DNA of 59,160 nucleotides, from NCBI GenBank assembly GCA_002269645.1, contig NIVC01003108.1, positions 1 through 59,160 of the forward strand, read 5' to 3'. The stretch is from Macrostomum lignano. Taxonomy: Eukaryota. Shown here piece by piece: positions 2,432-19,766 of this stretch (its first letter is position 1; each line of letters starts with the position of its first letter). Below the pieces are notes generated by a model. That model was not told the DNA's origin. It saw nothing but the letters and a program-made list of their open reading frames with translations, and made no database searches. Made by a program: the position numbers and the translations under genes.

Positions 2432-2754
2432 AGTAGTATATACGATACAAAATAGCCAGCAAACCGTTCTCACCATTGCAAACAATTTAACCCTTTATCA
2501 GTGTGAAATGACTTGTTTTCCCTTCATTTTCGCTCGTCTTCACTTCGCTCAACTCGCTTCGCTCATCCTCGCTTCATTTCGGTCAAACAAGTCATTTCAC
2601 ACTTACAACGATTAATTCTCTTTGAATGGTGAGAACACGCTCTCGTCGAACGCTTTGGTTTGCTGGCTATTTTGTATCGTCAACGCTTCCAACTCTCCCC
2701 AATACACACAAACTCTCTATAACCCGTCGCACGCGCCGCAGGCGCGAAGGGTCT
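2432..2754 (+). repeat. Left terminal inverted repeat (323 bp)
   Basis: Reverse complement of 19444-19766 by eye; the ORF track gives the identical peptide VVYTIQNSQQ...FHTYND from both ends. Confidence 0.97.
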
Positions 2755-2770
2755 TTTTCTGTTACTAAAA

Positions 2771-3085
2771 ATGACCCGAGTTTACACCTTTTCTGTTAGT
2801 GATACTTTTGAGACTGTTGCTAAAAATGCAGAGATAATAAAACAACATATCTTGAACGGAATAATTGATGAAGTTTATTTAAAATATGACGATAAACATG
2901 ACCTAAAACTTTATCCATTAGAGTTAGATGAGATGTATGATTTAGAACAAGAGGGAGAGTTAATATTTCAACTTGGAGATTATTTAAATTCGGATGATTG
3001 GGAGGTTAGATCAACAGATTCCGAATCAACAAATAGTTCATATGAAACCAGTGATTCTGAGAATGAAATTGAAATTTTTATGTAA
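2771..3085 (+). CDS. Viral hypothetical acidic protein, 104 aa
   Basis: ORF with TAAAAATG start context immediately inside the left TIR. Confidence 0.6.
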   Translation: MTRVYTFSVSDTFETVAKNAEIIKQHILNGIIDEVYLKYDDKHDLKLYPLELDEMYDLEQEGELIFQLGDYLNSDDWEVRSTDSESTNSSYETSDSENEIEIFM

Positions 3086-3100
3086 AAAAATATTTAAAAA

Positions 3101-3325
3101 ATGAATTATTATTCTATAACAGAAACGACGTTTATTATGAAAAATATATATAAAAAAATGAAGGTAAATTATTCCTACATCGGAAATGTGCCGGTTAATG
3201 AACTTAATCAAAATTTAAGTTTGATATCTGTTGAACAAATGTCAATAATAATCTTAGTAACAATAATAGTAATAATATTGTTTTTGTTTGTTATAAAAAA
3301 TTTACTACCCTGTTGTCTTAAGTAA
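3101..3325 (+). CDS. Viral small membrane protein, 74 aa
   Basis: C-terminal hydrophobic stretch IIILVTIIVIILFLFVI; AAAAATG start. Confidence 0.55.
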   Translation: MNYYSITETTFIMKNIYKKMKVNYSYIGNVPVNELNQNLSLISVEQMSIIILVTIIVIILFLFVIKNLLPCCLK

Positions 3326-3335
3326 CTGTTCAAAC

Positions 3336-4214
3336 TTAGTTCGCAGACATTAGCTGGTTCTCATAAAAAGAACCCAATATTTCTTCACCGTCCTTATCAG
3401 CAATTATATAGGTTGTAGGATTGGTATTTAAAACTTTACTGATAGTAAATTTCTCACTTATTTTCCAATATCCTTTTCTTCCCTTTTCAAACTTATCTTT
3501 CCATTTATAGATATAAACAGAATCACCAACCTTAAAACCTTTAGTTTTCTTTTTTTCAAATTCTCCAAAAGTAACTTTAACTTTTTCAGGATTGTTATAA
3601 GCTTGTTGAGGAGTCATCTTTATAGCCGAATGATATGAATTGTTATAATCTTTCACAACGTCTGGTAATATTTTTACCCACTTTTGATTTCCATTCAGAC
3701 TAAATTGAAACCACAATTTCTTACCTAAAGTTCGATTAAATCTTTCTATTAATGCGTTTTTACTTTCGCCGTAAATAGAATAAATTTTATTAATATACTC
3801 CCCATTCGCGTCTTTTTTCCTTTCTTGTCCTTTTTCAAAATGATATAATTTATACATATGAGGATTGTAAAATTCTTTTCCTTCATCAACACACAACCTT
3901 TCACTTTTTTCTCCAAGACTTCTAAAAGCAGCCGCAACATCCTCTCCTTTTTTGGATTTTAAAGGAACAGCCCACGCATATCGAGTAAAACCATCTAATA
4001 TGGTTAAGATATATTTATATCCTCTTTCGTTCGGCATCGACATTAAATCAGCATACCAAATTTCATTCTTTTTGAAGTTCATGATTTTTCTATAAAATTT
4101 AGGTTTTCGATATTCTTTATGAAGAATCTTTGCCTCATCAGAACTTAACCCGCCGCCACTTAATAATAAACACTCAACACAATTATTTCCATGTTGATTG
4201 TAATTAATTCCCAA
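3336..4214 (-). CDS. Retroviral-type (rve) DDE integrase of the Maverick; probably the C-terminal part of a PLA2-integrase fusion
   Basis: IWYADL (D), YILTILDGFTRYAWAVPLKSK, VDEGKEF (D), IERFNRTL (E), YNNSYHSAIKMTP, C-terminal FKVGDSV...GSFYENQL. Confidence 0.95.
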   Translation of the reverse strand: MGINYNQHGNNCVECLLLSGGGLSSDEAKILHKEYRKPKFYRKIMNFKKNEIWYADLMSMPNERGYKYILTILDGFTRYAWAVPLKSKKGEDVAAAFRSLGEKSERLCVDEGKEFYNPHMYKLYHFEKGQERKKDANGEYINKIYSIYGESKNALIERFNRTLGKKLWFQFSLNGNQKWVKILPDVVKDYNNSYHSAIKMTPQQAYNNPEKVKVTFGEFEKKKTKGFKVGDSVYIYKWKDKFEKGRKGYWKISEKFTISKVLNTNPTTYIIADKDGEEILGSFYENQLMSAN

Positions 4215-4940
4215 TCCAAATTTAACTTTAGACTGTAAGATTTTTTAACCATCCACCGAGTTAATCTTTGGCTTACCGATAACCCCTGTAAGTTATCTAA
4301 TCCTTGAATCATTTTTCTATCAGCTTCATGTTTTAATCTTAATGCTTCCTCGGGTGAGTTCTTATCAGCATCTCTGTATGCTAAGTCATGATAGTATGCT
4401 AACCAATCAATACCGTTAATGGGAATTGAATCGGCTTTTGGTGTATTATCAGGATTTAATCTCAAATCTAACCTAGTACCGGCAGTTTGCCCTAAATCTT
4501 TCGAAATAGGCTGGAGCACACCTTAAGCGGATAAATTACCGCCCACCTCCGTCTGCTCTCTGAACCTTCTCCATATCTGCCGACTTAGGAGCTTGGCTGC
4601 GCATTGCCACCGTGTCTTCAAGCTTGTTACCTTTGGGAAGAGGAGTTACCTCTGTTCCTTCAAAAGATTTCTCAATTGAAGTGGTACTTGAAGCTGTATG
4701 ACGGGTTTCGCGCAATTTGAAGGTGTCGCCACAAATAGTGACTAGCAAGGACATTGCCTTCCTCACTCAGGCCACGGGTTAACCTGCGAAGTTGTAAGAC
4801 GGGATGTGTAATTCATTTGTATACCTTCCAGTAGTAAAGATTGGTGGTAAGCTTGTTAATCCTTTTTGAACATCTAACAATCCTCCTTCAAATACTAATT
4901 GTTCGAACCTTCGGTTCGCATGCGTCGCATGATCGCTCAT
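4160..4940 (-). CDS. Parvovirus-type phospholipase A2 (PLA2X) domain gene split by a group I intron: exon 1 4782-4940, exon 2 from 4482; joins the integrase frame near 4241-4246
   Basis: Exon 1 ends ELHIPSYNFAG; exon 2 continues GTRLDLRLNPDNTPKADSIPINGIDWLAYYHDLAY...HEADRKM (HD dyad, later D); the conserved end ILQSKVKFGLG lies in the integrase frame. Confidence 0.85.
4483..4781 (-). ncRNA. Group I intron, subgroup IC1 (self-splicing ribozyme type), ~299 nt, no internal endonuclease ORF
   Basis: P1 exon CAGGU / IGS GCCUG (4772-4768) with U.G; P3 CACCUUC (4725-4719) / GGAGGUG (4550-4544); P AAAUUGCGCGAAA and Q AAUGCGCAGC forming P4; P5abc with GAAA loop; R GUUCAGAGAGCAGA and S UAAGGUGUGCUC forming P7 GAGCA/UGCUC; P8 GGGCGG/CCGCUU; P9 GAAA loop; terminal G at 4483. 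Confidence 0.92.
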
Positions 4941-5489
4941 TTTTAATAGCCTTAAAAATACATGAAAGCACCAATTGTTTTGCAAATTCTTCAATGGTTG
5001 GTTGCTTAACTTTTTTATAGTTATTATCTACGCTAGTTAAGTATCTTTTATTTCTCCAATTTTCAGACTTTTTAATCTGATCTTCGTCTTTGTAACTAAA
5101 TGAAGAAGCGGGAATGAAATGATCAATATCTAACTTTCCAGTATAATTTTTTGGAACATAATAATTTCTTGTGAAATTTAACCAATCAAAAAGAATTCTT
5201 TTGTGCAACCAAGATAGGAGATATAATGCTTGTCATGAAAAGTTCTCAATGCCCAATTTATTCTACCTCTAATTAGACTAATATTTTTGTAATTTTCATC
5301 AGTGCGATATTTATTTTTTGCATATTTATTACATTTATCTTTATTGTTTATTCTCCACATAGTACATTTAACTTTCTCACAAGATCGACAAAGATTTTTA
5401 ATTTTTTTTGTGTCATTTCTCCAACAAAAAAATTCTTTAGTCATCGGTTTCTCAATTTTACACGTAGTACAAATCTTTTTAGATTCCAT
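4888..5489 (-). CDS. HNH-type endonuclease with N-terminal CxxC-CxxC zinc module (two ORFs joined by a one-base frameshift at 5188-5192)
   Basis: KICTTCKIEKP...LCRSC; KYRTDENYK...IRGRINWAL...YLGCTKEFF then FDWLNF...LDIDHFIPASSF...NWRNKRYL...NNYK, resembling HNH proteins of large DNA viruses (from recall, not a search). Confidence 0.75.
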
Positions 5490-5516
5490 TTTATAAAAAA
5501 TAAATTTAACAATTAA

Positions 5517-6188
5517 TTAAATACCTGTATGTCCAGCAGCTTTCGCGGCAGCTAAAACAAGTTTTCTAGGAGTTTTAAATCCTTCACCAACAGCCGGCAT
5601 GTTATTTATAGAATTAACAATCCTTTTATACAAGCTGGTATTTTTAACATGGGCTACTCCTAACTCATCGTAAAAATTTTTAGCACTTACTAATTCGTCT
5701 CTAGTATATAAATCAGGGTTAAATTTTACCCTAGGGTTCGTAATAATATTAAATGCTCCACCCAATTCTCTATATAGTTCATTTCGATTTTTATCAACTC
5801 CACCAATTCGATAATTACCACCACCTAAATCTGTCACAGCAATACTACGTGGCGCATCTCTTGGAAATTCTACCCGATTACCCCGATCTGCAGCCCTAAT
5901 CTCTGCAACTCTCAATTGAGCTTGATCAACATCATAAGCAGGTGGCTCATCCAAAATTTCATCCTCTTTTGGCTCCGTATTTTTAGCAATTTTTTCCAGA
6001 AGGTCTTTATCTGTTTTTTCTAGTTCACTAATTTTCCCCGTAATAGGATTAACAAAAGGAGCAGCAAATTTTTCACCAGCTAATTGTATTCCTAACTTTC
6101 TTTTTTGTAAATTTCTAACAAAATCAGAATATCTTTGTTTCTCTTTATAAATCGCTAACTCTCCATCAACGTCCATAAATTGGCTCAT
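5517..6188 (-). CDS. Viral hypothetical protein, 223 aa
   Basis: Long ORF with AAAAATG start, divergent from MCP. Confidence 0.7.
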   Translation of the reverse strand: MSQFMDVDGELAIYKEKQRYSDFVRNLQKRKLGIQLAGEKFAAPFVNPITGKISELEKTDKDLLEKIAKNTEPKEDEILDEPPAYDVDQAQLRVAEIRAADRGNRVEFPRDAPRSIAVTDLGGGNYRIGGVDKNRNELYRELGGAFNIITNPRVKFNPDLYTRDELVSAKNFYDELGVAHVKNTSLYKRIVNSINNMPAVGEGFKTPRKLVLAAAKAAGHTGI

Positions 6189-6222
6189 TTTTTAACATAA
6201 AAAACTTTTTTAACATAAAAAA

Positions 6223-7695
6223 ATGGCTGAAACAAAAACTATATGGAGTGATAAATTTCATTTCAAAAAGCACCGTCAGTATATTAATGAGGTCAGAGCG
6301 AGAGATTTAAACTATACTCTACCAACAAGCGATAATACAAATAACTTTACTAGCGGAACGGTAGCTTTTGACATCGGCGCAACCAACACCATATTGGATA
6401 TGAAAAATGCATTTTTCCGCGTTAGATGGTTGTATACTAGAAATGATGGAACTGCTCTAGCAGCCGGAGATATCGCAGATCGATCTGGAATAATAATAGA
6501 AAATGATTGGTTTTATAAATGTTTTTCCCAAGCTCAACTAACTGTTAATGGTGCCGAGGTTGAGACATCATCAAACCCCGCAGAGATTAATGGAGTTTTG
6601 AAACATTTAAATTATACTTATTTATCAAAACAAGTTGGTGATAATGTTGGGTGGATGCCGGATAAGGGCAATGGTCAAGCAGTAGTTTTCCCTAATGTAC
6701 AAAACGCAGCTGGTGCAGATACTGCAGCTCTTATTGCTTACATTAATACAAACATAGTTCCAGTTGTAACCACCATGACTAATACAAAAGATATTAATAC
6801 TGGTTATATAGATAGACAGAATAAATTCCCAGTTGCAGTTTTAACCACGGCAACGGCATATGAGCAGGACTTTTCAATCTTTCCACTATTTGGATTCTTC
6901 TCACCAAATCGGGTATGGAAAGGATTAAAATTTGGGGTACAGTTGCAAATATCTGGTGGATATCAGCCTAGGATACTTTATGGAACCTCTATTTCAACCG
7001 ATATAGCAGTTCGCATAGCATCAATACAATTAGTCGTGCCAACTATTGAGGTAACAGCACCACTTTTAAAACATGTCGATAATCAGTTAACGCATGATCA
7101 AGAAATATTTTATTTGAATCGTAGACATTTTATGCGAACCATTAATAATAATCAAGATTCATTCCAGTGGCAAATACTGACATCAAAACGTCGGGTGAGA
7201 TATATTTTTGTTTGGTTTAAGATAACAAATAGAAGGAGTAAAAGAGCAAATGGGGATTTATATTGGCTTCAATCAGGTGATGTAGCAGCACAGGGTGCCA
7301 CTGCAACAGACAATGCGGTTGCGGCCATTAACGAGTTTAATGTTCAGAATATCCGCCTGCAGGTTGATGACCAATACTATCCGGTTAAAGATCCTCTTAA
7401 TCTAAATATTGCAAATAATGATGTTAATGATTTTATAAAATATTATCAAGATTATGCCAAAAATGAAGCGTTTGCCGTCCCTCAGTACACACCCACAGAG
7501 TTTCTAAACATTCATCCAGTAGTTGTTTATGATCTAACGGCACAGAAAGAAAATGTAGCCAATGTTGGGCTTAATTATATGTTAGAGATTAATAAAACCG
7601 GTAATCAGGCAATAGACGCCCACGCTTTGTTTCTAGAGGAATATATGTCAATTGCTAAAGCCGACGGCACCATCGTTCGGGACGCCCCGCTGTAA
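6223..7695 (+). CDS. Major capsid protein (double jelly-roll), 490 aa
   Basis: Size and position; motifs LDMKNAFFRV, FSQAQLTVNGAEVE, PRYIF-like VRYIFVWF, YP...LNL, PVVVYDLTAQ typical of Maverick MCP. Confidence 0.85.
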   Translation: MAETKTIWSDKFHFKKHRQYINEVRARDLNYTLPTSDNTNNFTSGTVAFDIGATNTILDMKNAFFRVRWLYTRNDGTALAAGDIADRSGIIIENDWFYKCFSQAQLTVNGAEVETSSNPAEINGVLKHLNYTYLSKQVGDNVGWMPDKGNGQAVVFPNVQNAAGADTAALIAYINTNIVPVVTTMTNTKDINTGYIDRQNKFPVAVLTTATAYEQDFSIFPLFGFFSPNRVWKGLKFGVQLQISGGYQPRILYGTSISTDIAVRIASIQLVVPTIEVTAPLLKHVDNQLTHDQEIFYLNRRHFMRTINNNQDSFQWQILTSKRRVRYIFVWFKITNRRSKRANGDLYWLQSGDVAAQGATATDNAVAAINEFNVQNIRLQVDDQYYPVKDPLNLNIANNDVNDFIKYYQDYAKNEAFAVPQYTPTEFLNIHPVVVYDLTAQKENVANVGLNYMLEINKTGNQAIDAHALFLEEYMSIAKADGTIVRDAPL

Positions 7696-7744
7696 GCGGT
7701 GCAGGTCTCCGACCGTCGCACCAATTTAAATTTTATCTTTAAAA

Positions 7745-8509
7745 ATGGCAAAAGCAAAACACAATAAGATATTTCCAAATGATCCTTTTCTTTGTTTAGT
7801 AATTGGTGGGTCGGGTAAAGGAAAAACACACTTTGTTTATGACCTGTTAACAACGGATGGAATGATAGACTATAATAATTTAATAATTTATACTAACAAA
7901 CCTAGAATAAAATATTATGAATTTCTTAAACATGGATTAAAAAACAAATTAAAAAAAGATGTCTTGTTTAGAATGTTAAGAGCATATGAGCAATATGAGG
8001 ATGATGACGAACCGCGATTTACACTCGATGACATTGAGGATTTATGTAAAACAATGGCACAACAACCGGAAAACATCACCGAACGAGCCCCAACCGTTAG
8101 AGTATCAACCCGATTACCCTATCATCAAATTCCAAAAAATGATAAAACACTAATTATTTTTGATGATTGTATTAACGACAGTGATCAAGAATTGCAAAAG
8201 GATATTTTTGTTAGTGGTAGAGGGGATGGAATTGGCGCTTTTTATCCAACACAGTCCTTTAGAGAATTAGAATCGATTATAAAAAAGAATGCAAGTTGTT
8301 GTGTAATGTTTGATTTAGATAATTATGATTTACAAAATATACACGCTAGATTTAATCCCGGGTTGGATATAAAACCATTTAAAAGTATGTGTAAAAAAAT
8401 TTGGGATGACAGCCAATACAAACATATATATATCAACCCTAGGTTAGAAAGGAAAAATCGAATCTTAAGAGATCTGATAAAAGAAGATAATGAGGAAGAA
8501 GAGACTTAG
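7745..8509 (+). CDS. FtsK/A32-like DNA packaging ATPase
   Basis: Walker A LVIGGSGKGKT, Walker B LIIFDDC, downstream SGRG...YPTQSF. Confidence 0.93.
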   Translation: MAKAKHNKIFPNDPFLCLVIGGSGKGKTHFVYDLLTTDGMIDYNNLIIYTNKPRIKYYEFLKHGLKNKLKKDVLFRMLRAYEQYEDDDEPRFTLDDIEDLCKTMAQQPENITERAPTVRVSTRLPYHQIPKNDKTLIIFDDCINDSDQELQKDIFVSGRGDGIGAFYPTQSFRELESIIKKNASCCVMFDLDNYDLQNIHARFNPGLDIKPFKSMCKKIWDDSQYKHIYINPRLERKNRILRDLIKEDNEEEET

Positions 8510-8557
8510 TTCGTTCCGAAGGAACGCGACCCTACGGGGCGATTTACCACTATAAAA

Positions 8558-9343
8558 ATGGCAACAAATTTAAATACTATAAAACAATTGGTAGATAGAA
8601 CTAATTCAAAATTTAGTACAACCTTACAGTTTATAATGACAACCAGTGAGCAACGGATTCAATTGCGCGATCCGTTACAACTCGATCAAAGCCTAAGTTA
8701 TCAAATAGGTTTGATATTATTTTCGGTTTTTAACATGCCTCAATTAATTAATGCAACAAATAATCAATTTAGATATTCTAAAGATTCAGGAGCCAATTGG
8801 ACAACATTTAGTGTTAGCCCGGGTGCGTATAGCTATACCGATTTGAATGCTTATATCGAAGGAGAATTAACAGCTAATGGCGATTGGGTAGCGGGCGCGA
8901 TTGTTATAGGTGTGGATTTACCGTCTGGAAGATTCACACTATCACTAGAATCCGGATATCAGGTTGATTTTACAATTGCAAATTCACTCAGAACCATACT
9001 TGGATTTAATTCCCGAATAGTTACCACATCAAGCACCGGCGATACAGTTGGAAATATTGAGGGTGGAGTCAACACAATTAATATAACAACCGACATATCA
9101 AACGGCGGTTATATAACAGACGATAACGGAGTTTTGGTTCAACGTGGAATTATATATTCAATACCATTTCTTGCTGTTCCAATTGGAGAGAAAATGATTG
9201 TTTCACCTCAAACCCCAATATATTACCCATTAAATCAATATAGTGTTCAATCAATTTATATTAGGATTGTAGATGAAAGCGATAGATTAATAAGTTTTGG
9301 TGGGCAGTCAATAACAGTGATTTTACGTATAAAACAGGTTTAG
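8558..9343 (+). CDS. Minor capsid (penton, single jelly-roll) protein
   Basis: NNQFRY, PGAYSYTDLNAYI, LGF, INITTDI...GIIYSIP, PIYYPL, IRIVDESDRLISFGG, typical of Polinton mCP. Confidence 0.85.
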   Translation: MATNLNTIKQLVDRTNSKFSTTLQFIMTTSEQRIQLRDPLQLDQSLSYQIGLILFSVFNMPQLINATNNQFRYSKDSGANWTTFSVSPGAYSYTDLNAYIEGELTANGDWVAGAIVIGVDLPSGRFTLSLESGYQVDFTIANSLRTILGFNSRIVTTSSTGDTVGNIEGGVNTINITTDISNGGYITDDNGVLVQRGIIYSIPFLAVPIGEKMIVSPQTPIYYPLNQYSVQSIYIRIVDESDRLISFGGQSITVILRIKQV

Positions 9344-9353
9344 TACTGTAAAA

Positions 9354-9524
9354 ATGGGTAACAATAGTTTAAAAAAGCAATCATATAAAGTTCAAAATGC
9401 AAAAGATAATTATGAAATCGAATTAACAAAATTAAAACAATTACAGGCAGAAAAAATCCGAAAGGAGCTGTTAAAATCCAAACCTACAAAACTAACTAAA
9501 ACCAAGAGTTTTTCAGGAACATAA
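9354..9524 (+). CDS. Small basic viral protein, 56 aa (below ORF-track cutoff)
   Basis: MGNNSLKKQSYKVQNAKDNYEIELTKLKQLQAEKIRKELLKSKPTKLTKTKSFSGT; TAAAAATG start; fills the mCP-protease gap exactly. Confidence 0.55.
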   Translation: MGNNSLKKQSYKVQNAKDNYEIELTKLKQLQAEKIRKELLKSKPTKLTKTKSFSGT

Positions 9525-9525
9525 A

Positions 9526-9966
9526 ATGACCATGACGTGGGATGATTTTAAACAAAGATATGGAACAGACACAACAAGCAATATCGAATTAACAAATTGG
9601 GCGCGGCAACTAAAGATAAAACCATTCAGATGTGTTATGCGGGATGAGATAAAAAATTTACCAATATATGGATGTTTCATTGTTAACATCGAAACGACAA
9701 AAGAAAATGGTGTTCATTGGTCAGCAATTTATTCAAAACCTAAACTTGTTTATTTTTTTGATTCATACGCGCTTCCTCCGTTACAGGAAATAAAAGATAA
9801 ATTTAATCATACTAAAAATCGTTTATGTGGAGATCATCACGAACAATTTCAAACTTTTGATAAAAGTTATTGCGGACAAGCGGCGTTGTATTTTTTATAT
9901 AGGGTCGAAAAGGTAAAACAGGTAACTCCCGAAGTATTTAAGATAATTTTAGATTCTATAAAATAG
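9526..9966 (+). CDS. Adenain-like cysteine maturation protease
   Basis: GVHWSAI (His), YFFDSYA (Asp), QTFDKSYCG (Gln, Cys). Confidence 0.93.
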   Translation: MTMTWDDFKQRYGTDTTSNIELTNWARQLKIKPFRCVMRDEIKNLPIYGCFIVNIETTKENGVHWSAIYSKPKLVYFFDSYALPPLQEIKDKFNHTKNRLCGDHHEQFQTFDKSYCGQAALYFLYRVEKVKQVTPEVFKIILDSIK

Positions 9967-9975
9967 ACAGTAAAA

Positions 9976-12021
9976 ATGTTATTTTCTGGAACGCCCTCAT
10001 GGAACGGAACAACAAGTACTGGTGGTGGTACGTCTGGTGGAATAAGCGTCACATTCGGAGATAACCGATATATTAATGAAGATGAAGGTTATAAAAAAAG
10101 TGAAGTTGATACTAAACTAAATTTAAAAAGAAATGTTGCAGATTCCTATACCAAAACTCAAATAGATGATTCATTAAATTTAAAACGCAATACGGCCGAT
10201 TCTTATACCAAAACCGAAGTTGACAATGGGTTAAATTTAAAAAGAGATATAACTGATTCTTATTCTCGAACTCAAATCGATGATTCATTAAATTTAAAAC
10301 GCAATACGGCCGATTCTTATACCAAAACTGAAATAGATAATTCATTAAATTTAAAAAGAGATATTGCTGATTCTTATACCAAAACCGAAGTTGATAATTC
10401 CTTAAATTTGAAAAGAGATATAACTGATTCTTATACCAAAACCGAAGTTGATAATTCCCTAAATTTGAAACGGAATGTTGCCGATTCCTATACCAAAACC
10501 GAAGTTGATAATTCATTAAATTTAAAACGGAATGTTGCCGATTCCTATACCAAAACGGAGGTTGATAATTTAGTTGGAGGTGGAGCCCCAAAACAAGATC
10601 GATTCCAAACGGTTGAAACTGGTCACATACCTACCATGGCAGATTGGAGTGGAAATGGTTTTGCAATAACCGCAAGCACCGCATTTAATACAACCGATTT
10701 TGCAAGCTGGAAAGCGTTTGATGGTGATGATTCAACAGATTGGGCAACAAATAATACTCAAACCGATTATTGGATTCAAGTCCAATGCCCTTCCGCAATA
10801 ATGTGTTATAAAATTGATTTGCGTGGTAGGCCATCGCCATCAACCGAACACCCAGCATCATGGCGATTTGAGGGGAGTAACGACAATACAAGTTGGGACG
10901 TATTAATACCTGCGGATAGTTCTGTAGTAATAAATAACTCAACTCAAACAATTAATGTCACACAAAATTTTGATAAAACATATTCATATTTCAGATTGTT
11001 CTGTCTTACATCAACCTCGGGTTCAACCAACCCCGGCTTGTCAACCTTCCAGATTTATAGACAGACGTTTACAATTCTTGATTTAAATTTAGGAGTGGTT
11101 AATCAATCAATTGATATGGGTAATAATACAATTACTAATATCTCTACAATAAACGATAACACTTCTGTTGTTACTAAAGGTTATGTTGATACGCGAGTAA
11201 CCCAAACGGCGGATGGCCGAATGTCTTTTAACGATAAAATAAAATTGGATGGAATACCCGCGATTGATGCCGCTTTGTACGAGCCTGTGATTTTCAATTG
11301 GACTGGATATCAAAACCCAACCACAGCCGGCGATATTTTTCCAACTGGAAGTTTTGTTGGTGACGCTACTTATATTGATTATCAAAATGGAGCTAGAATT
11401 ACTGATGAAGCAAGTGGTCAGTCTGGAGCGTTGCAATTTAATTTCACCCATTTTCGTAATATATCCGCCTCCTTCTATTTCCGAGTTATTAATGCCACAG
11501 GAAGTGGTGCTGATGCGGTTTGGTTTTATGCATATTGTCACGAACGTCCAACAAGTGAATTTGGATCCGGGTTAACAACCAACGCCGGCTTGATTGTGTT
11601 TGCGAGTGAATGGCATGATAGAGTTGGAGTTGTTTGGAGTAATATAAAATCAGACGGAGCAACAGTTCGTAATGATGTTCTTAATGATGCTGATCAAACT
11701 ATAACTTATGCAAATATTGATAACGGCGATTGGCATTTATTTGAAATTAATATTTTAAATCAAAGAGTTTGGTATCAAATAAGCACATACAATGTTTCAG
11801 CTAAAACATATACGCTAATTGGGCAAAACTTTTTTACATATGATAGTGGAACTTGGGGAGAGTTAGATAAAACGGGAACTCTTATGGGGTTTGGTGCTAG
11901 AACTGGAGGGGCAGATGCTGCACATTTTATTCGTGGCGCTGCCGTTTGTGGTAGCACATCAGCAGGATCTGATTTTGCTGCGACCGCATATTTGGAACAG
12001 CCACAAGCCGAAATAGCCTAA
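9976..12021 (+). CDS. Fibre/spike-like protein, 681 aa: 8 x 19-aa repeats, discoidin (F5/8C)-like domain, C-terminal L-type lectin-like domain
   Basis: Repeat NLKRxxxDSYTKTEVDNSL (~10119-10570); ITAS...WKAFDGDDSTDW...WIQVQ...FEGSNDNTSW...YFRL; VVTKGYVD linker; QSGALQF...GADAVWF...GFGARTGG..H. Confidence 0.75.
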   Translation: MLFSGTPSWNGTTSTGGGTSGGISVTFGDNRYINEDEGYKKSEVDTKLNLKRNVADSYTKTQIDDSLNLKRNTADSYTKTEVDNGLNLKRDITDSYSRTQIDDSLNLKRNTADSYTKTEIDNSLNLKRDIADSYTKTEVDNSLNLKRDITDSYTKTEVDNSLNLKRNVADSYTKTEVDNSLNLKRNVADSYTKTEVDNLVGGGAPKQDRFQTVETGHIPTMADWSGNGFAITASTAFNTTDFASWKAFDGDDSTDWATNNTQTDYWIQVQCPSAIMCYKIDLRGRPSPSTEHPASWRFEGSNDNTSWDVLIPADSSVVINNSTQTINVTQNFDKTYSYFRLFCLTSTSGSTNPGLSTFQIYRQTFTILDLNLGVVNQSIDMGNNTITNISTINDNTSVVTKGYVDTRVTQTADGRMSFNDKIKLDGIPAIDAALYEPVIFNWTGYQNPTTAGDIFPTGSFVGDATYIDYQNGARITDEASGQSGALQFNFTHFRNISASFYFRVINATGSGADAVWFYAYCHERPTSEFGSGLTTNAGLIVFASEWHDRVGVVWSNIKSDGATVRNDVLNDADQTITYANIDNGDWHLFEINILNQRVWYQISTYNVSAKTYTLIGQNFFTYDSGTWGELDKTGTLMGFGARTGGADAAHFIRGAAVCGSTSAGSDFAATAYLEQPQAEIA

Positions 12022-12077
12022 GGCTAAAGCCTAAGTCGCGAACCAAAGGTTCGATAACTTAAATATTTCTATATAAA

Positions 12078-12407
12078 ATGGCTTTTAGTAGAACTCCATC
12101 GATGCGACAAAATAACAATGTTATTATTCCTATTCCTAAACAAGAATCAAATATAAAAACATACAAATCTCATACCAAATATTTATTTAGCCATGTGAAT
12201 GTTCAGGATAATAAGAAACTTCAAGAATTAATTAAATTGTTAAAAAACCATATCATACTTCAAGAGTTTTGGAAAATAGGATTTAAATGGGAGAAAAAAG
12301 AAAGAATCACTCCGATACAATACCTATTGAGCTCCGGACAAATACCCAAAGAGCGTGGGGAATTCATTTTGGTGCTATTAAAAATAGACGAAAATGTCGG
12401 TGTCTGA
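12078..12407 (+). CDS. Viral hypothetical protein, 109 aa
   Basis: ORF with TATAAAATG start. Confidence 0.6.
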   Translation: MAFSRTPSMRQNNNVIIPIPKQESNIKTYKSHTKYLFSHVNVQDNKKLQELIKLLKNHIILQEFWKIGFKWEKKERITPIQYLLSSGQIPKERGEFILVLLKIDENVGV

Positions 12408-12536
12408 GGCAGATAAAAGGGAACGTGACCATTTTAACCAACGTAAAGGTCACATGTTAAGTAATGTTGATCGTATTAACTATGATTATATTTATATGTT
12501 AAAAAAGTAAGAAGGATTTCAAACCATATCAGAAAT

Positions 12537-13045
12537 ATGGATTTTTTCAATATTGGTTTTGGAAGCTTATCGATGTTATGTGTAATCGTTTTAGGTATTT
12601 TACAATCTATTCCAACTCTTAATTTATCTCAATTATTTTTAGGTATTTCAATTGGCTCAATATCAGGATTTGAATTAATCAGAAATTTATCAATACTTAT
12701 GGCAATTAAATTATATCTTAAAAAACGAAAGGATAAATATAAATCATTAAGAGATATTGCAAAACAATATAAAAATCAGTTGTATTTATATGTGCAAAAA
12801 TATTGGATGATGGAGAGATAACAATTCATGAGTTATCAACGGCGGTTGAATTATATGAAAAATATTTAAAAGATCGAAATAGAATTTTAGATGTTGAAAC
12901 TTTTACCGATATGGAGTTAAAAGAGTTGAGACTCGATAAACCCAAAGCTCCGCCGATAGAAACTATTGAATACAAACCAGAAACTATGGCTATGGGGGTA
13001 CAAAGCCCCCGATCAGGTAGCGCTGTAGAACTTCAAGTTGTTTAA
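12537..13045 (+). CDS. Viral two-TM membrane protein (~169 aa after joining two ORFs at the A5 run 12796-12800)
   Basis: Two hydrophobic segments, then KKRKDKY...VQK(I)LDDGEITIHEL...EKY; adding one A makes a continuous ORF. Confidence 0.6.
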
Positions 13046-13525
13046 TTTTTCTAACGCATACGTTATATATTCTTCCCAAAGTGGTAATTCTCTTGTAATT
13101 CTAGGTTTAAATTTTTTATCAATACATAAAAATTCCAATGACTTTTTCAGTAACATTTCGTTAGGTATGTTACCTATCCTTATAAACTTTGTATTCTCTC
13201 GAATAAGAAAATTAAAATAATATCCAACTAAAATTAAAATCCTTTCGGAGTCTTTCGAACTTAATCCCTTTCCTTTATTTAAATTGAAAAAGTTGTTATA
13301 TAAATAAACATTATTTCCGGGAATTAAAATTGGATGAGAAATGTCTCTTGTAAGATTTCTTAATATTGTGTTTTTAAAATAGTAATATGAATTTTCAATC
13401 TTTTTTGTTTTTTCAAATTGATATATTTTAGAACATGAATAGCACATATGATATATATCTCCGCTTGCTGTTTGAGCTCTATGCATAGTCACGTTACATT
13501 TTTTACATTCGTAAATGTCTTTCAT
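13013..13525 (-). CDS. Viral hypothetical protein with N-terminal CxxC...CxxC zinc ribbon, 170 aa
   Basis: YECKKC...MCYSC; AAAAATG start. Confidence 0.65.
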   Translation of the reverse strand: MKDIYECKKCNVTMHRAQTASGDIYHMCYSCSKIYQFEKTKKIENSYYYFKNTILRNLTRDISHPILIPGNNVYLYNNFFNLNKGKGLSSKDSERILILVGYYFNFLIRENTKFIRIGNIPNEMLLKKSLEFLCIDKKFKPRITRELPLWEEYITYALEKLNNLKFYSAT

Positions 13526-13551
13526 TTTTTTGTTATTTTTTTAGATTAAAA

Positions 13552-13884
13552 ATGGAAAGTTGGTTGAAAACCGATTCTAATGTGATTAATTATGTCACCC
13601 CCAATATGTTGGAGAATAAAGAATATAATATTATATGTTTGAGACAGGTTAAATTTATTGGACTTCAATCGATATTTTTACAATTGGATTCACATACAGT
13701 TCTATGTCTAAGTGGGAATGATGTTAAAAATTTTCCAGTTTTAGTTATTAATAAACCTAAAGCGTTCATTATAAAATACAGCACCGAGGGTGGGTTGCAA
13801 TTTAAAATAAAACAAACAAAAAATAAAAAGAGTGACAGGACTGTAAAATTAGCTTCCGTTTGGGAGACTGACGAAGATGACTAA
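13552..13884 (+). CDS. Viral hypothetical protein, 110 aa
   Basis: TAAAAATG start; compact packing. Confidence 0.6.
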   Translation: MESWLKTDSNVINYVTPNMLENKEYNIICLRQVKFIGLQSIFLQLDSHTVLCLSGNDVKNFPVLVINKPKAFIIKYSTEGGLQFKIKQTKNKKSDRTVKLASVWETDEDD

Positions 13885-14245
13885 ATTTTTTTATAAGAAA
13901 ATGGAGATACAAATTATCCTTATCACTAAAGAGCGTGAACTTAATTATATTAATAAAAAAATAAATACTATGTTTTATAGTGATTATGGGGACGATATGT
14001 TTCCTATCCGATACGACTTGGATAAAAGAAAGCGTTTTATACAAAAAGCAATTGATTATGCTGAAACAGTAATTGAAATTGAAATAGATAGATTGGTTAG
14101 ACGAATAAAAAAACTTAGGAAAAAAATAAAGGAATGTTTAAGTTACCCTGCCGACTGCGAGGACAATTGGCCTTCAATAATATATGAAATTGAAGTTAAT
14201 GATATGGTCAAACAATTACATGCTTTGGTTTTTTTCAAGTGCTAA
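13877..14245 (+). CDS. Viral hypothetical protein, ~110-122 aa
   Basis: ORF overlapping the previous one; converges on PolB. Confidence 0.55.
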   Translation: MTKFFYKKMEIQIILITKERELNYINKKINTMFYSDYGDDMFPIRYDLDKRKRFIQKAIDYAETVIEIEIDRLVRRIKKLRKKIKECLSYPADCEDNWPSIIYEIEVNDMVKQLHALVFFKC

Positions 14246-17200
14246 TTCATCAATATCAAACTCAAAACAATTATAATCAACATCAAATAGTAAACTGTTA
14301 TAATATGCAATTGAATTTTCGTGTTGTGGTTTGTCATCAAAATAGTTTTTAAAGAATGGTTTCATAACTCCGTTTTTATCCGGTTTTTCTCTTTTAAATG
14401 TGTTTATCGTAGAGGTATATGTTTTTGATATTGTTGATCCACTTTGGGGATTATTATGCCTCCTTCAAACGATCGTTTCCATGGGGCATTATTATTTACT
14501 TTTATTGACTGCCCATCATATAACGTTTTAAACGATGCAAAATTAATCTTATCATTTGCACATCCTTTAAATGTTTTTTTCTCTTCCATAATAAAATCGT
14601 CTTTCAATAAAAGACAATATTTAATTTTAGGAGCGATAAAATAACCGAATATAATTCCACCCTCTCCATAATCATTTTTTCCTTGACTTAAATTATTTCC
14701 AACATGCCCGTTTTTATTTAATGTGTCCCAATATTTTTTATGTATATATAACGAATCTGTATCGCCGTAATAAATTTCTGGAGTCTTTGAGCCGTCTATA
14801 GAGGTGATAAAATTATTCATGATCCTTCTTGAATGAGCTAAGATAAATATTCCTAATTGTGCTGGACAAAGGCTTGTTATAGGACAATCCTCTTCCTCAT
14901 CTACATATTCTTGCGTGTCTTTATTTTTTTCAACATAATATAAATCGTCACATATTTTCTCATATGATTTGATTGTGTCATCGTATTCTGTTTTTAATGT
15001 TTGCAAATTCCAGAGATGTGTTGTGAAAGTAATGTCTCTTTGAACTGTTTTGCCATATAATGAATTTAATAGTGTTTTTACCAATTCAGAACCTGCCTCG
15101 TTATTTTCTTTTTTAAATACTTTTCTCCTTTCAAAAAGGCTTGTAATATAATTCTGAAACGGAGAGAAATCGTAATTTTTTTCATATACAATTCCACTAT
15201 ATATCTTTAATATTTTTCCACCCATTCTTACAATTTCTTGTATATCTACGGAACATAAGGTGTCAATTACCTTTCCGTTTTTAAACCTATTTAATGTTTT
15301 TGTTTCGTTTGCTTTTGTTTCCGGATTATAAAATTTCTCTTTATCTTTCGATGGGAGATGTTGAAGAAAAACGGTGTTAGGATTCTCATACATAATCTTT
15401 AAAACCGCTGTTTTTGGTCGAAAGGTTTGTGAATTAAATTGTGATAAGAAATCTTTTTCCTCGCTTATATCAAACACCCTGGCTGTTTCTGCTCTTGGAT
15501 ATTCGCTATCCTTATCAGACATGGCGGATGGGTACAATGAGACCCCATCAAAATTCATTAAACAATCTGATACGGTACCCAATTGATTTTTTAGTTTAAT
15601 TGCGATTTTCTTTTTTTCTTCCATATCGCTTTTGAGATAAGATGATATAACCTCGCATGGGTCGCTTGTTGGTGTTTTTAAATGGTCTTTTACAACGTCT
15701 ACTATTGTTTGAAAACAATCACTTTCGTATTTATTTATTAGTGCAAATACTCTACCTCCTTTGACTGCGTCCCGCATAAACCTTCTTATATAAGGATTGG
15801 TATGAGAGTGAACTGAAAATTCTTTTCTTAATAGTGTTTGGTATTTCGCTTTTTCAAGATTGCTTAAGTCAAAATAATCTTCTATTTTCAACGGAGATAT
15901 TATTTCTTCAACTTTTTTAATGTAATTAGTTTTTTCTTCTGTCTTTAGATATTGTTTCATTTTGTCTTCAACTCTAACAAAATCTTTAAACCAACATTTT
16001 AATGTTAAACTTGAACACGTAAGAGTATCAAACATTGTCATTCCTCCAATTTCATATGCTATTTCGTTATATTTATGAATACAGGCACATAAAGAAATAA
16101 GATCAAATTGTAAATATTCATACCATTCGTCTATGCGTTCTAGATAATCGTGCTCGGTAATGTCATGAACCATTGAGGTTTTTCGCAAATCCTCTCTAAT
16201 TGTCATTGATGAGCAAAACTTTTTTAAACTCATTGAAGCGTGTTGATATGAACAAAGCATCGTAATGGTTTGTTTCGAATCCTTGTGATTCTTCTTCTTA
16301 TCTTTATTTATAAACGCACTAACCTCTTTTGACGCGTAATCGTTTACAAAAGTGATTGATAATATTCCTCTTGGGGTTTTGAGAATTTTAATTGGTTTTA
16401 TATTACAAAATAGTGGTATGTATGAATCAAAGCGGGATGAGTTGTGTGCGATCAAAACAATCTTTTTTGACCTAACTGTACCAAGGTATTTAAACATTTT
16501 TCTAACGCAGTCGGTCTTAGCTCCGTCTGTTTGAAAATCACAACCGCGATCTGATATCAAGATCTTAGTTAGTTTCTTTATTTCCTCTGGGGTTTCGTTA
16601 CAATTATTAGAAAAGTCATTATAATTTAAAAGACCAACCGCATACGGGCATGCTTGTTGATTATAATTTAAATATGTTTCAAAATCAAATATATATACAT
16701 TTGATTTATTGGGATTTGTGGGTGTGTTGAATATTTTTAACTCCTTAACATTTTCGGGTGTTGGGTTTTTAAACACTACTTTATAATTGTCTTTTATCCG
16801 TTCGAGGGCGATTCCTCGTTGTTTATTTGATATAAGACAATAATGCCCAATGTGGTAATCGGGTGTGTGAAATAATTTATTAATAACCAATCGTGGTGAA
16901 TCCCTCTTTGAGACTTTGGTTCAATGCCGCGATTTTTGGTGTTGTACAGCCCTATATTAAGATTAAAATATTCATTGAATCTTCCAATTCTTGAATTTGT
17001 CATTAAACCTCTTTGGGTTCTTGAGTCGTACAACCAAGCACCATATTCGTCTTTGCGTGGGGCTTTATCACCATATATAAATTTAACGCACTTATAGAAA
17101 CAATTTCCATCACTAGGTATGTAACAGTACTCATCTTTATACTCTGCAATTTCACACATGACATTTGTTCCCATACCCTGCTTTGACCTTTCGTGTTTAA

Positions 17201-17812
17201 TTGTAATTTCATTTGGTGTCATTTTAAGTCTTCCAGAAAACATACTTAAATTCATGTTATAGTTTTCTACCAAATGCTTAATCCAAGCTTGAAACTGTTT
17301 TATATTATAAAATGTTGCTAAGTATTGATTAATCTCTTCGCGATCATCGCCGCTATCGTTATAAAAATATTGTACACTAGCATTAGTAATTTCAACACTA
17401 TATCCGTTTGAAAGTTGGGTTTCAATAAAATCTAGCACCTTCTGCATTGGTTCAAATCGATAAACCCTAATAAACTCTTCTAATGGTTTTTCATCCGATT
17501 TATTCTTAGTTTTCCGACGTGTTTGTTTCTTTTGGTTTTTTCTAATTCTGCTATTCTTTTTTCATATTCAACCTTTTCTACTAAACGCTTAAAAGCTTCT
17601 TCTGCCCTTATACTATTTGCTAATTCGTTTATTTGTTGTTCTTGTATTTCTCTTTCTCTCTGCCTTTCTCTCTGTCTTTCTCTTGCTCTTCGCCGAAGTT
17701 GCTGTCTTTGGCGCCGTTCAATTTGTTCAATCTGTCTTTGTAATAGATTGAACTGTTGGCGCTCATTTGCAAGAAGTTGTCGAATCTGATCTGGGGTCAA
17801 TCTTTGTTCCAT
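14216..17812 (-). CDS. Protein-primed family B DNA polymerase with N-terminal region and vOTU domain; split here by three one-base frameshifts (17536-17541, 16876-16878, 14422-14426)
   Basis: ExoI IFDFET, ExoII AHNSSRFD, ExoIII YLQFD; Pol A DGVSLYPSAM, B KTLLNSLYGK, C YGDTDSLY, KxY APKIKY; OTU IPSDGNCFYKC...GHYCLI; restored C-terminus STINTFKREKPDKNGVMKPF. Confidence 0.93.
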
Positions 17813-17896
17813 TTTATAGAATATAATTTATATAATGTTTGAATTATTGGTTTTTTAATTTTATGTTTTTAGCGTCCTGACCCACCTCCCAGGAGC

Positions 17897-18871
17897 CTAT
17901 TCGAGATCTGCTTTTGGTAACAGTAGTCCATTGCCCATAACGTTTGAATTTAAGAAAATTCCTGAACCTGCTTTTGGTCTCATTTCGAGATATAATCCGC
18001 TTCCGTCGTGTTTTTCAATTATGTTAAAATCTTTTCCTAACTTAGTAAAAATCTTCTGAACTGCCGGCCTAAAATTAGCTCCAATATTATCAAAAAACCC
18101 TTTAGCTTTCTCACCCGTTTTTTCTAAAGTTTGACCAAATTCCTGTAGTTTATCTGCTACAACTCCACTTCCTTGGGTTGTTCCTTTTAGTACCAAGCCG
18201 CTGCCATTTAACAGTAAACCTTTTCCGGCTGCTAACCTAGCTTCTGCATTTCTTTTTTGCTCTGCTGTTGCTGAACTACTATTAATGGTGTCAATAAGTT
18301 TCTGTTTGAATTGAGCATCCTGCGTTATTTGCTGTCTTTGAAATTCGGCCTCTCTTTTAGCTTTTTCATCCGCAGCTTTTTTGTCATTTACTGCTTTTGC
18401 AATTCCAGCTGCTCCACCAGCAACTCCTCCAGCTGCTCCTATTCCTGCAAAAATTATTGGTAACAAAGTTGCAAGTGGTAATATGCCTCCCTGTTTTGCC
18501 TTTAATTCTGCTAACTGTTTTCGGTTATCATGAATTCTTTTGCCTGCTAAACCGGCTGCTCCGGCTGCTCCGAGGCCTAAAAGAATTGGTAAAATAGGTA
18601 GTAAACCACCGTCCTTTTTAGTGTGAGTCTCCAATAAAAATTTTACATCGGACTCTGTCAGCCTATAATTTCTACCACGATTCTTAAAGGATATTGGCCT
18701 TCCTTCTTGTGCATATTTTGCAGCAAGTTTAAATGTATCGATGTCGTAGTCAAGTTTTTTACCTAAACGATCCAATCTTTTTAACATTGTGTGGCTATGT
18801 TTATTATCATCTAGATTTAAAGTATCTACAATTTCTCCTATAAAATGTAGCCGTTCATTATCCGTGTCCAT
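17897..18871 (-). CDS. Virion core / membrane-active protein with Gly-Ala-rich amphipathic segments, 324 aa
   Basis: DGGLLPILPILLGLGAAG; QGGILPLATLLPIIFAGIGAAGGVAGGAAGIAKAVND; repeated GKGL/GSGL motifs, as in Maverick/adintovirus core proteins. Confidence 0.75.
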   Translation of the reverse strand: MDTDNERLHFIGEIVDTLNLDDNKHSHTMLKRLDRLGKKLDYDIDTFKLAAKYAQEGRPISFKNRGRNYRLTESDVKFLLETHTKKDGGLLPILPILLGLGAAGAAGLAGKRIHDNRKQLAELKAKQGGILPLATLLPIIFAGIGAAGGVAGGAAGIAKAVNDKKAADEKAKREAEFQRQQITQDAQFKQKLIDTINSSSATAEQKRNAEARLAAGKGLLLNGSGLVLKGTTQGSGVVADKLQEFGQTLEKTGEKAKGFFDNIGANFRPAVQKIFTKLGKDFNIIEKHDGSGLYLEMRPKAGSGIFLNSNVMGNGLLLPKADLE

Positions 18872-18881
18872 TTTTATATTG

Positions 18882-19322
18882 TTAAAATTTTTTTAATCCT
18901 TTTCCGCCTTTAATGGTGGTTAGCATTTTATTAAAATCCTGAATATCTTTATTACTTATTGGAGTGCTTTTCGTAGGGGTTTCTGTTGGTTGTGCGGCTT
19001 GTGCCAGCTTTAAATCTTTTATTGCATTTATTTGTGAGAGGGTGTCGTTAAATTCTCTCAATTTCTTTAGTTCTTCTGCTGCTCTAGCTGCTTCAATTCC
19101 TCCTTTTACAGCATTTGTTATAGAACCTGCTGCGGAGCCTGCTTGCCCTATAAGACCCATATTGTCTTTAACAAAATTTGCTGCTGTTCCAACCACATCA
19201 AAAAGACCCTCACCTCGGTATTCAACTGGATCTCCTACCTGCAATTCATTCAGATTTTGCATATTAGTAACGTGTGTCATTTTTTGTTCTATTTTTAGTA
19301 ACAGAAAAAAGATTGTCTGCAT
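18882..19322 (-). CDS. Probable virion core protein (~130-146 aa)
   Basis: RGEGLFDVVGTAANFVKDN..., C-terminal KGGKGLKKF; likely true start at MTHVTN (AAAAATG). Confidence 0.6.
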   Translation of the reverse strand: MQTIFFLLLKIEQKMTHVTNMQNLNELQVGDPVEYRGEGLFDVVGTAANFVKDNMGLIGQAGSAAGSITNAVKGGIEAARAAEELKKLREFNDTLSQINAIKDLKLAQAAQPTETPTKSTPISNKDIQDFNKMLTTIKGGKGLKKF

Positions 19323-19443
19323 TCCATTTAGACCAGATTTTTGAAAACGAAAACCAAAACGAAAAATCTGGTCTAAATGGAATGTTGAGTGGGTGGGTGA
19401 GCTGACTATAAATAGCTTCTATTCTTTCTCTACCAAAACTTCC

Positions 19444-19766
19444 AGACCCTTCGCGCCTGCGGCGCGTGCGACGGGTTATAGAGAGTTTGTGTGTATTGGG
19501 GAGAGTTGGAAGCGTTGACGATACAAAATAGCCAGCAAACCAAAGCGTTCGACGAGAGCGTGTTCTCACCATTCAAAGAGAATTAATCGTTGTAAGTGTG
19601 AAATGACTTGTTTGACCGAAATGAAGCGAGGATGAGCGAAGCGAGTTGAGCGAAGTGAAGACGAGCGAAAATGAAGGGAAAACAAGTCATTTCACACTGA
19701 TAAAGGGTTAAATTGTTTGCAATGGTGAGAACGGTTTGCTGGCTATTTTGTATCGTATATACTACT
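19444..19766 (-). repeat. Right terminal inverted repeat (323 bp)
   Basis: Reverse complement of 2432-2754. Confidence 0.97.

Follow-up and report, generated by a model that had tools for sequence, protein, structure and literature searches.

Mobile group I introns have been proposed to originate through collaborative homing. Its defining features are cleavage at the intron site and protection from that cleavage by the intron (PMC6083498, PMC3984707, PMC2988022, PMC10448857). In cyanophage S-PM2, for example, the ORF-less intron of psbA is paired with F-CphI (PMC6083498), and further cases come from T3/T7-like phages and ICP1 (PMC10448857); the demonstrated cases that we found come from a few phages. 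Bodo saltans virus, a protist virus, has group I introns with HNH or GIY-YIG endonucleases, encoded within introns of its polymerase and capsid genes, for which trans-homing has been proposed (PMC5871332). Polinton-like viruses of protists harbor RF00028 introns of ~300 nt as well as HNH genes; the text of that report places these introns only in Paulinella, Desmodesmus and Rhodomonas, in a short gene that precedes that of the capsid, and assigns no endonuclease to them (PMC12220804). An HNH domain in the pPolB2 of nematode and oomycete Polintons has been suggested to originate from group I introns (10.1101/2023.08.22.554363), and collaborative homing has been raised speculatively for replicases and helicases (PMC11296320, 10.64898/2026.10.13.758929). 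Our literature search, which covered mainly open main texts, returned no published report of a group I intron, or of the arrangement described below, in an animal Maverick; PMC12859917 and PMC10120064 likewise offered nothing on the subject.

The locus analyzed here resembles the phage systems in that a free-standing nuclease gene adjoins an ORF-less intron, but it differs from them in that it lies in a Maverick integrated in an animal genome, that two unrelated nucleases alternate beside the intron and are both also found inside introns, and that cleavage is something we infer. With giant viruses it shares the HNH family, by a fold match to Bodo saltans virus, and a related intron, that of contig L237 (see below), whereas its enzyme is free-standing and its intron sits in a PLA2 loop. 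It is like the introns of PMC12220804 in matching RF00028, in its length of ~300 nt and in residing in a Polinton-like element. Unlike the slot HNH, which is free-standing, the HNH of pPolB2 is PacI-like and fused in the polymerase, and the source describing it reports no intron in the text available (10.1101/2023.08.22.554363).

The element occupies positions 2432-19766 (17.3 kb) of the window, that is, the whole 59,160-nt stretch of Macrostomum lignano DNA that we analyzed. It is a Maverick/Polinton with terminal inverted repeats ending in AGTAGT, a 6-bp target-site duplication, and pPolB, integrase and ATPase genes; putative capsid and protease genes are also present. Its insertion (at 2432) breaks an exon of a Cys-loop receptor gene (flanks 637-2431 and 19767-22056), which is a member of a tandem cluster of such genes and marks the host as an animal. 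A 681-aa ORF at 9976-12021 contains tandem repeats of 57 nt as well as an F5/8 type C domain; it varies between copies and probably encodes a fibre or attachment protein. On the minus strand, a conserved 223-aa ORF (5517-6188) forms the upstream border of a slot, which in the window is occupied by a free-standing zinc-finger and HNH gene (4888-5489). This is followed by a gene in which a PLA2 domain is fused to an rve integrase, with exon 1 at 4782-4940, an ORF-less type A group I intron of 299 nt at 4483-4781, and exon 2 at 3336-4482. The frame of exon 2 breaks in the window but is continuous elsewhere, and the fusion protein comprises 424 aa in an intron-less copy. The original prediction, a zinc-finger and HNH-like gene ending at 4888 and overlapping the PLA2 start at 4940, is borne out: the gene starts at 5489, its stop codon is at 4890-4888, the overlap is 53 nt, and a CxxC...CxxC segment lies at 5379-5471. 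The distance from its stop to the 5' splice site, which follows the GGT at 4782, had been put at about 100 nt and is 106 nt. In the window this gene is frameshifted near 5190 and split over two frames (5489-5178 and 5208-4888), whereas it is open throughout, with 200 aa, in two near-identical copies (L002 and L003). Since these differ from the window by gaps only (0 substitutions and 3 gaps over 4364 nt; 0 substitutions and 9 gap openings over 3291 nt), the frame break is most likely an assembly indel.

The intron matched Rfam RF00028 in a local scan (60 bits, cut-off 50, E 1.6e-14), and was missed by the whole-window Rfam scan with gathering and fast filters. As predicted, it has no endonuclease ORF, containing only short ORFs composed of ribozyme-core sequence; a short P2.1-like hairpin marks the place where relatives carry a nuclease ORF. 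The insertion point is a Gly-Pro-Gly loop of the host gene, exon 1 ending in ...YNFAG at the U of P1. This U at -1, which forms the U-G pair of P1 at the 5' splice site, is found in 111/111 tabulated type A alleles. P1 pairs CAGGU with GCCUG in type A and, in compensated form, CGGGU with GCCCG in type B, and the P7 strands likewise differ in a compensated manner between this family of elements (family 1) and a second one (family 2), whose intron copies score 73-91 bits with the covariance model. The last intron base is G in the window and in 29/113 type A copies, and A in the other 84, with P7 strands unchanged. Where A stands before the Pro codon in place of the usual G, the 3' splice rule may be an unusual one, a different 3' site may be used (which adds three codons), or the copies may not splice. 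No spliced joint was seen in the contigs of four sequencing runs, whose RNA status is itself a guess, and the minimum-energy folding is unremarkable (z -1.7). Type B (L034 and 23 other loci) is 326 nt long and 78% identical to type A, over 133 nt only; it shares the 5' site with type A, but its apparent 3' junction is shifted by 2 nt relative to that of type A. Exon markers are perfectly linked to type B (r2 1.0), which points to co-conversion. Some family-1 copies (L007, L012 and others, with intron A) share a 30-nt insertion in the P5 region with family-2 introns, which suggests exchange between the families.

We used the protein of a naturally open HNH copy (P0001) as a query. An exhaustive search found 1437 relatives at E up to 0.001; of the 44 candidates from a word-indexed search, none was a homologue. 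In an alignment of 84 rows (P0001 and 83 of the 150 relatives listed), H124 and N156 of the motif D123-H124...N147...N156...K159 (P0001 numbering; positions 5014-5124 of the window, minus strand) are invariant, and D123, N147 and K159 are at least 90% conserved. The catalytic residues on which the original prediction depended are thus present, and D-H, N, N and K are kept in 70/70 open slot copies, although the filter used for picking these copies demanded a D/E/N-H/R pair; the other 30 of the 100 HNH-slot loci are broken or truncated. Calculated from 53 distinct sequences, dN/dS is lower in the nuclease part (0.42) than in the N-terminal part (0.56). The structure model of P0001 (pLDDT 93) has a strand-strand-helix at residues 120-159. 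In a viral structure library it matches HNH proteins down to E 1e-9, including an 'intron encoded endonuclease' of Bodo saltans virus (E 5e-9) and mimivirus L246; matches in the PDB are weak and mostly to Cas9 HNH domains (best E 0.06), and comparison with GVE2 HNH gives Z 4.2. The zinc-binding segment resembles the N-terminal region of Hpy99I (E 1e-3; structure Z 5.3, rmsd 2.5, 42 aligned). Pfam and PHROGs gave no named family for P0001; the C-terminal piece of the window protein reaches Pfam HNH_4 at only E 0.48, PF01844 is matched by 4/84 homologues at E up to 0.01, and in the ESM Atlas the clusters at 0.95 were viral but unnamed, those of HNH scoring only 0.87-0.88. Taken together, the homologues, motif and modeled fold point to an HNH (beta-beta-alpha-metal) nuclease with a predicted activity. 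In a tree of 56 rows (6 were skipped since the anchor motif is missing), family-1 copies group with P0002 (100/96), and P0009 falls in a wider group with the family-1 clade at weak support (88/60). The ~100 copies share the nuclease end and vary in the N-terminal half (57-100% identity), and one subtype is found with intron B only, in its 13 loci that have exon 2. In L031 (1872-2339) and L137, most of the HNH gene has given way to a 155-aa ORF similar to the variant upstream gene found in L094 and L095, and ~42 HNH codons remain.

For a census of the slot, we searched this genome with PLA2 exon 2 (150/463 candidates scored, giving 138 of family 1 and 12 of the second family) and with HNH (134/134 scored). 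After removal of 16 of the 156 exon-2 loci (13 of the other family, 2 truncated and 1 duplicate), 140 family-1 copies remained; they are counted as loci and not as independent events, since many occur in near-identical pairs. The intron is present in 137/140. The slot holds HNH in 100 copies, a PD-(D/E)XK nuclease in 37 and something else in 3; by intron type, A occurs with HNH in 81 copies and with PD-(D/E)XK in 30, B with HNH in 16 and with PD-(D/E)XK in 7, no intron with HNH in 3, and the other 3 make up the rest. In the PD nuclease the motif E..ID..ExK is invariant and dN/dS is 0.23; its fold resembles that of EcoO109I (Z 9.4, rmsd 3.8, 169 aligned), and RE_Eco47II is matched weakly (E 2e-4, which is below cut-off). 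Therefore, the partner of the intron is a swappable slot, not one fixed gene. T4-like phages are said to have a comparable site, where SegH and Hef replace mobC and mobE; there too, different homing endonuclease families occupy one intergenic place, and we know of no demonstration that both occupants also exist in intron-encoded form.

These counts do not bear out an exclusive pairing of HNH and intron. As to the expected co-occurrence, 97/100 HNH copies have an intron, but so do 37/37 PD copies; slot type shows polar linkage toward the intron site, but within HNH alleles the correlation favors the upstream flank (see below). Intron-less alleles that could serve as targets do exist in the same genome, 3/140 in family 1 and ~20 in family 2. 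The three in family 1, representing two independent haplotypes, all carry HNH, with an open ORF in two. HNH in intron-less relatives had been named as a possible objection, and it is indeed found there, but the intron-less share among HNH copies (3/100) does not differ significantly from that among PD copies (0/37; Fisher p 0.56). Of the predicted homing pair, it is supported that relatives of the HNH are intron-encoded, once at the same PLA2 site, that intron-less alleles exist and that slot type is linked to sequence on both sides of the intron site; the fixed HNH-intron partnership is not supported. The arrangement is richer than predicted and its connection with homing is still strong, while collaborative homing itself is what the sequences suggest.

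Family 2 provides an intron-encoded counterpart. Its exon 2 is ~64% identical to that of family 1, its PLA2-integrase gene lies at the element end, and the slot is absent; ~20 copies are intron-less, and ~30 have the same intron at the same site with a PD nuclease inside it, in the loop of the hairpin before P3. The PD ORF was intronic in 26/26 loci fetched by the PD query and was found nearby in 23/24 exon-2-only matches, and it is ~62-64% identical to the slot PD. Neither HNH nor PD was found upstream in the 11 intron-less family-2 loci read. Six of nine PD homologues from outside run on into intron-like sequence (five by alignment). We also considered whether the free-standing PD gene keeps intron remnants, which was rejected as the alignment covers the ORF alone. 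The family-2 junction reads Thr-Gly with C at -1 in intron-less copies (L168-L179) and Ala-Gly with T at -1 in intron-bearing ones (L189-L214), reflecting either co-conversion or an immune allele. As to the polymerase, the pPolB of the window (14404-16890) has no blastp match to that of the family-1 copies L223, L227 and L232, which resembles the family-2 polymerase, a replicase swap inside family 1.

The HNH search of this genome (134 candidates) found no HNH inside an intron, but such forms occur elsewhere. Metagenome contig L244 has a PLA2 gene with a related group I intron (101 bits; 75% over 199 nt to the window intron) at the identical G|PGT position, and the same hairpin loop of that intron holds a broken HNH homologue (27% over 199 aa, E 5e-13); in the tree, this HNH is placed elsewhere, with the giant-virus-like type, as is P0052. 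Two of the 150 listed representatives, P0009 and P0052, end in translated intron core, as seen from the protein alone; P0009 is 37% identical to P0001 (E 7e-28) and 43-45% identical to the intron-B-associated subtype. In IMG/VR contig L237, an HNH homologue (32%, E 6e-13) resides in an intron of a giant-virus capsid gene that is 88% identical over 67 nt to the window intron. Scans for DNA around P0002, P0009, P0152 or an intron-less PLA2 gave no loci. A search with the junction pattern yielded 28 matches versus 56 in the control, so that most are due to chance; among the 28 were one family-1 intron-less allele and one degraded distant PLA2. In pattern searches of viral and metagenome sequence, introns were present at the match in 1/8 and 2/7 hits, and in a further set of loci in 1/80. 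Relatives of the intron also occur, several per gene, in giant-virus-like capsid and RNA polymerase genes (L237, L269 and L242), and introns of these groups have HNH or GIY-YIG-like ORFs; such introns are a likely source of the Maverick intron.

We examined how slot type is linked to its flanks in 128 of the 140 loci, 12 having no upstream anchor. On a tree of 450 nt upstream, slot type changes 22 times (23.4 when shuffled) and is hence unclustered, whereas it is clustered on the intron tree (13 vs 17.2) and the exon-2 tree (14 vs 21.6). Nearest-neighbor tests on 78 collapsed intron-A haplotypes associate slot type with exon 1 (z 5.1), with the middle of the intron (z 3.1) and, over its initial ~250 nt, with exon 2 (z 3.7 and 4.4), but not with the two intron ends (z 0.8), exon 2 beyond (z 0.9) or the upstream flank (z 0.2-1.3); when all 96 haplotypes are taken, two windows of the upstream flank reach a marginal p of 0.04. 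Such a polar tract is the expected trace of repair from a break at the intron site, although the statistics ignore ancestry, exon 1 overlaps the slot gene, and the test does not name the driving nuclease. Within HNH alleles, HNH distance correlates best with the distance in the upstream flank (rho 0.49), less with that in the intron (0.33) and least with that in exon 2 (0.22), and recombination is free across all segments of the family-1 copies. In the 450 nt upstream and the first 370 nt of exon 2, no site diagnostic of slot type or HNH immunity was found (max r2 0.28). At the junction, 93/97 HNH intron alleles read xxN-F-x-G versus 20/37 PD alleles, and 15/37 PD alleles have GYS, as in family 2; the collapsed junction types are 25:4 for HNH versus 8:9 for PD (p 0.007). 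Both intron-less HNH haplotypes deviate from HNH intron alleles at near-invariant positions: L094 and L095 have GYSYAG, which otherwise accompanies PD alone (5 copies), and in L041 the base at -1 is C. These differences would fit immunity, as judged from two haplotypes.

We consider it about an even chance (roughly 0.5) that the slot is a swappable place for free-standing homing endonucleases serving the intron site, with HNH and PD-(D/E)XK as alternative partners of the same intron, each also intronic in relatives. Where intron-bearing and intron-less elements meet in one cell, the slot nuclease would cut or nick the intron-less allele near the Gly-Pro-Gly junction, and repair off the intron-bearing allele would copy the slot gene, exon 1, the intron and the start of exon 2, while the donor would be protected from self-cleavage by its intron; that HNH itself cuts the intron-less PLA2 junction is a prediction from sequence comparison. 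This homing interpretation is favored because an HNH homologue sits in the L244 intron at the same PLA2 site; because the P0009, P0052 and L237 homologues and the Bodo saltans virus fold match are intron-linked; because the slot PD resembles the family-2 intronic ORF while intron-less family-2 alleles co-exist; because the motif is intact in all open copies at a dN/dS of 0.42 in the nuclease part; because slot type tracks exon 1, mid-intron and early exon 2 and not the upstream flank; and because the intron-less HNH haplotypes differ at the junction as immunity needs. It is weakened because all three intron-less family-1 copies carry HNH and none of the 37 PD copies is intron-less (a difference without significance), because PD was found inside the intron in this genome and HNH was not, because the L244 HNH is broken and of another tree type with P0009 grouping only at 88/60, because within-HNH distance follows the upstream flank best, because two of four tests over intron windows and distal exon 2 are unlinked and upstream reaches p 0.04 with 96 haplotypes, and because flank sites diagnostic of slot type are absent. 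A wider version, in which the Mavericks of one animal genome would hold the whole mobile-intron cycle at one site, with HNH and an EcoO109I-like PD-(D/E)XK competing, is somewhat less probable; it would comprise intron-less alleles, an intron that has no ORF and is moved by a free-standing nuclease, a form with the nuclease inside the intron, differing junction preferences, homing between integrated or co-infecting elements in animal nuclei, and a self-splicing RNA mostly ending in A.

Alternatively, HNH may spread by intronless homing or compete with PD for the slot, cutting elsewhere than at the intron site; PD would then move, or have moved, the intron, and the adjacency would reflect turnover at a hot spot, as with SegH and Hef in T4-like phages, an origin that Barth et al. 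propose for such loci (PMC10448857). Slot swaps are frequent (the 22, 13 and 14 changes on the three trees), PD is the nuclease found in introns here and has no intron-less family-1 copies, HNH tolerates intron-less alleles (3/100), and its distances track the upstream flank above the intron. Yet no polymorphism marking HNH alleles as immune was found from 450 nt upstream to 370 nt into exon 2; HNH homologues do occur inside this intron, at the same site, in other sources; and a single junction type is shared by 93/97 HNH intron alleles but by only 20/37 PD alleles. We regard this explanation as less likely than the first and more likely than those that follow. Purifying selection on both slot genes (dN/dS 0.42-0.56 and 0.23) and the rarity of homing targets, with the intron already in 137/140 family-1 copies, could also mean that the slot holds nucleases that came from giant-virus introns and are maintained by selection acting on the virus, for conflict with co-infecting elements, giant viruses or host DNA, or for packaging; intron adjacency would then reflect origin, and mosaicism ordinary recombination, in keeping with the free recombination of segments. 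A packaging or restriction role has been suggested for the HNH of Polinton-like viruses (PMC12220804). However, two unrelated folds alternate in the slot and both also occur inside the neighboring intron family, the function seems dispensable (0/11 intron-less family-2 elements have either gene upstream), and linkage is polar toward the intron site, which makes such a role improbable. Least probable of all, and by a wide margin of doubt, is that HNH is a former homing partner, now idle with its targets saturated and decaying slowly as a passenger: 30/100 slot copies are broken or truncated, L031 and L137 have had most of HNH replaced and dN/dS is only moderately low, but 70/100 are open with an intact motif, many breaks look like assembly indels, and intron-less alleles persist.

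Read as homing, the slot arrangement would be a new setting of a phenomenon already known from phages. It locates group I introns, together with candidate homing endonucleases, in the nuclear genome of an animal, for which we found no precedent in print, and offers two new candidate site-specific nucleases. For the PD nuclease, a single genome contains the free-standing and the intron-encoded form at one insertion site, alongside alleles that could act as donor or recipient; HNH shows the same two states across genomes. This allows direct tests of which way the transition ran and of what governs the choice of target. The element probably captures a stage in the spread of a selfish intron that has so far been described mainly in bacterial viruses.
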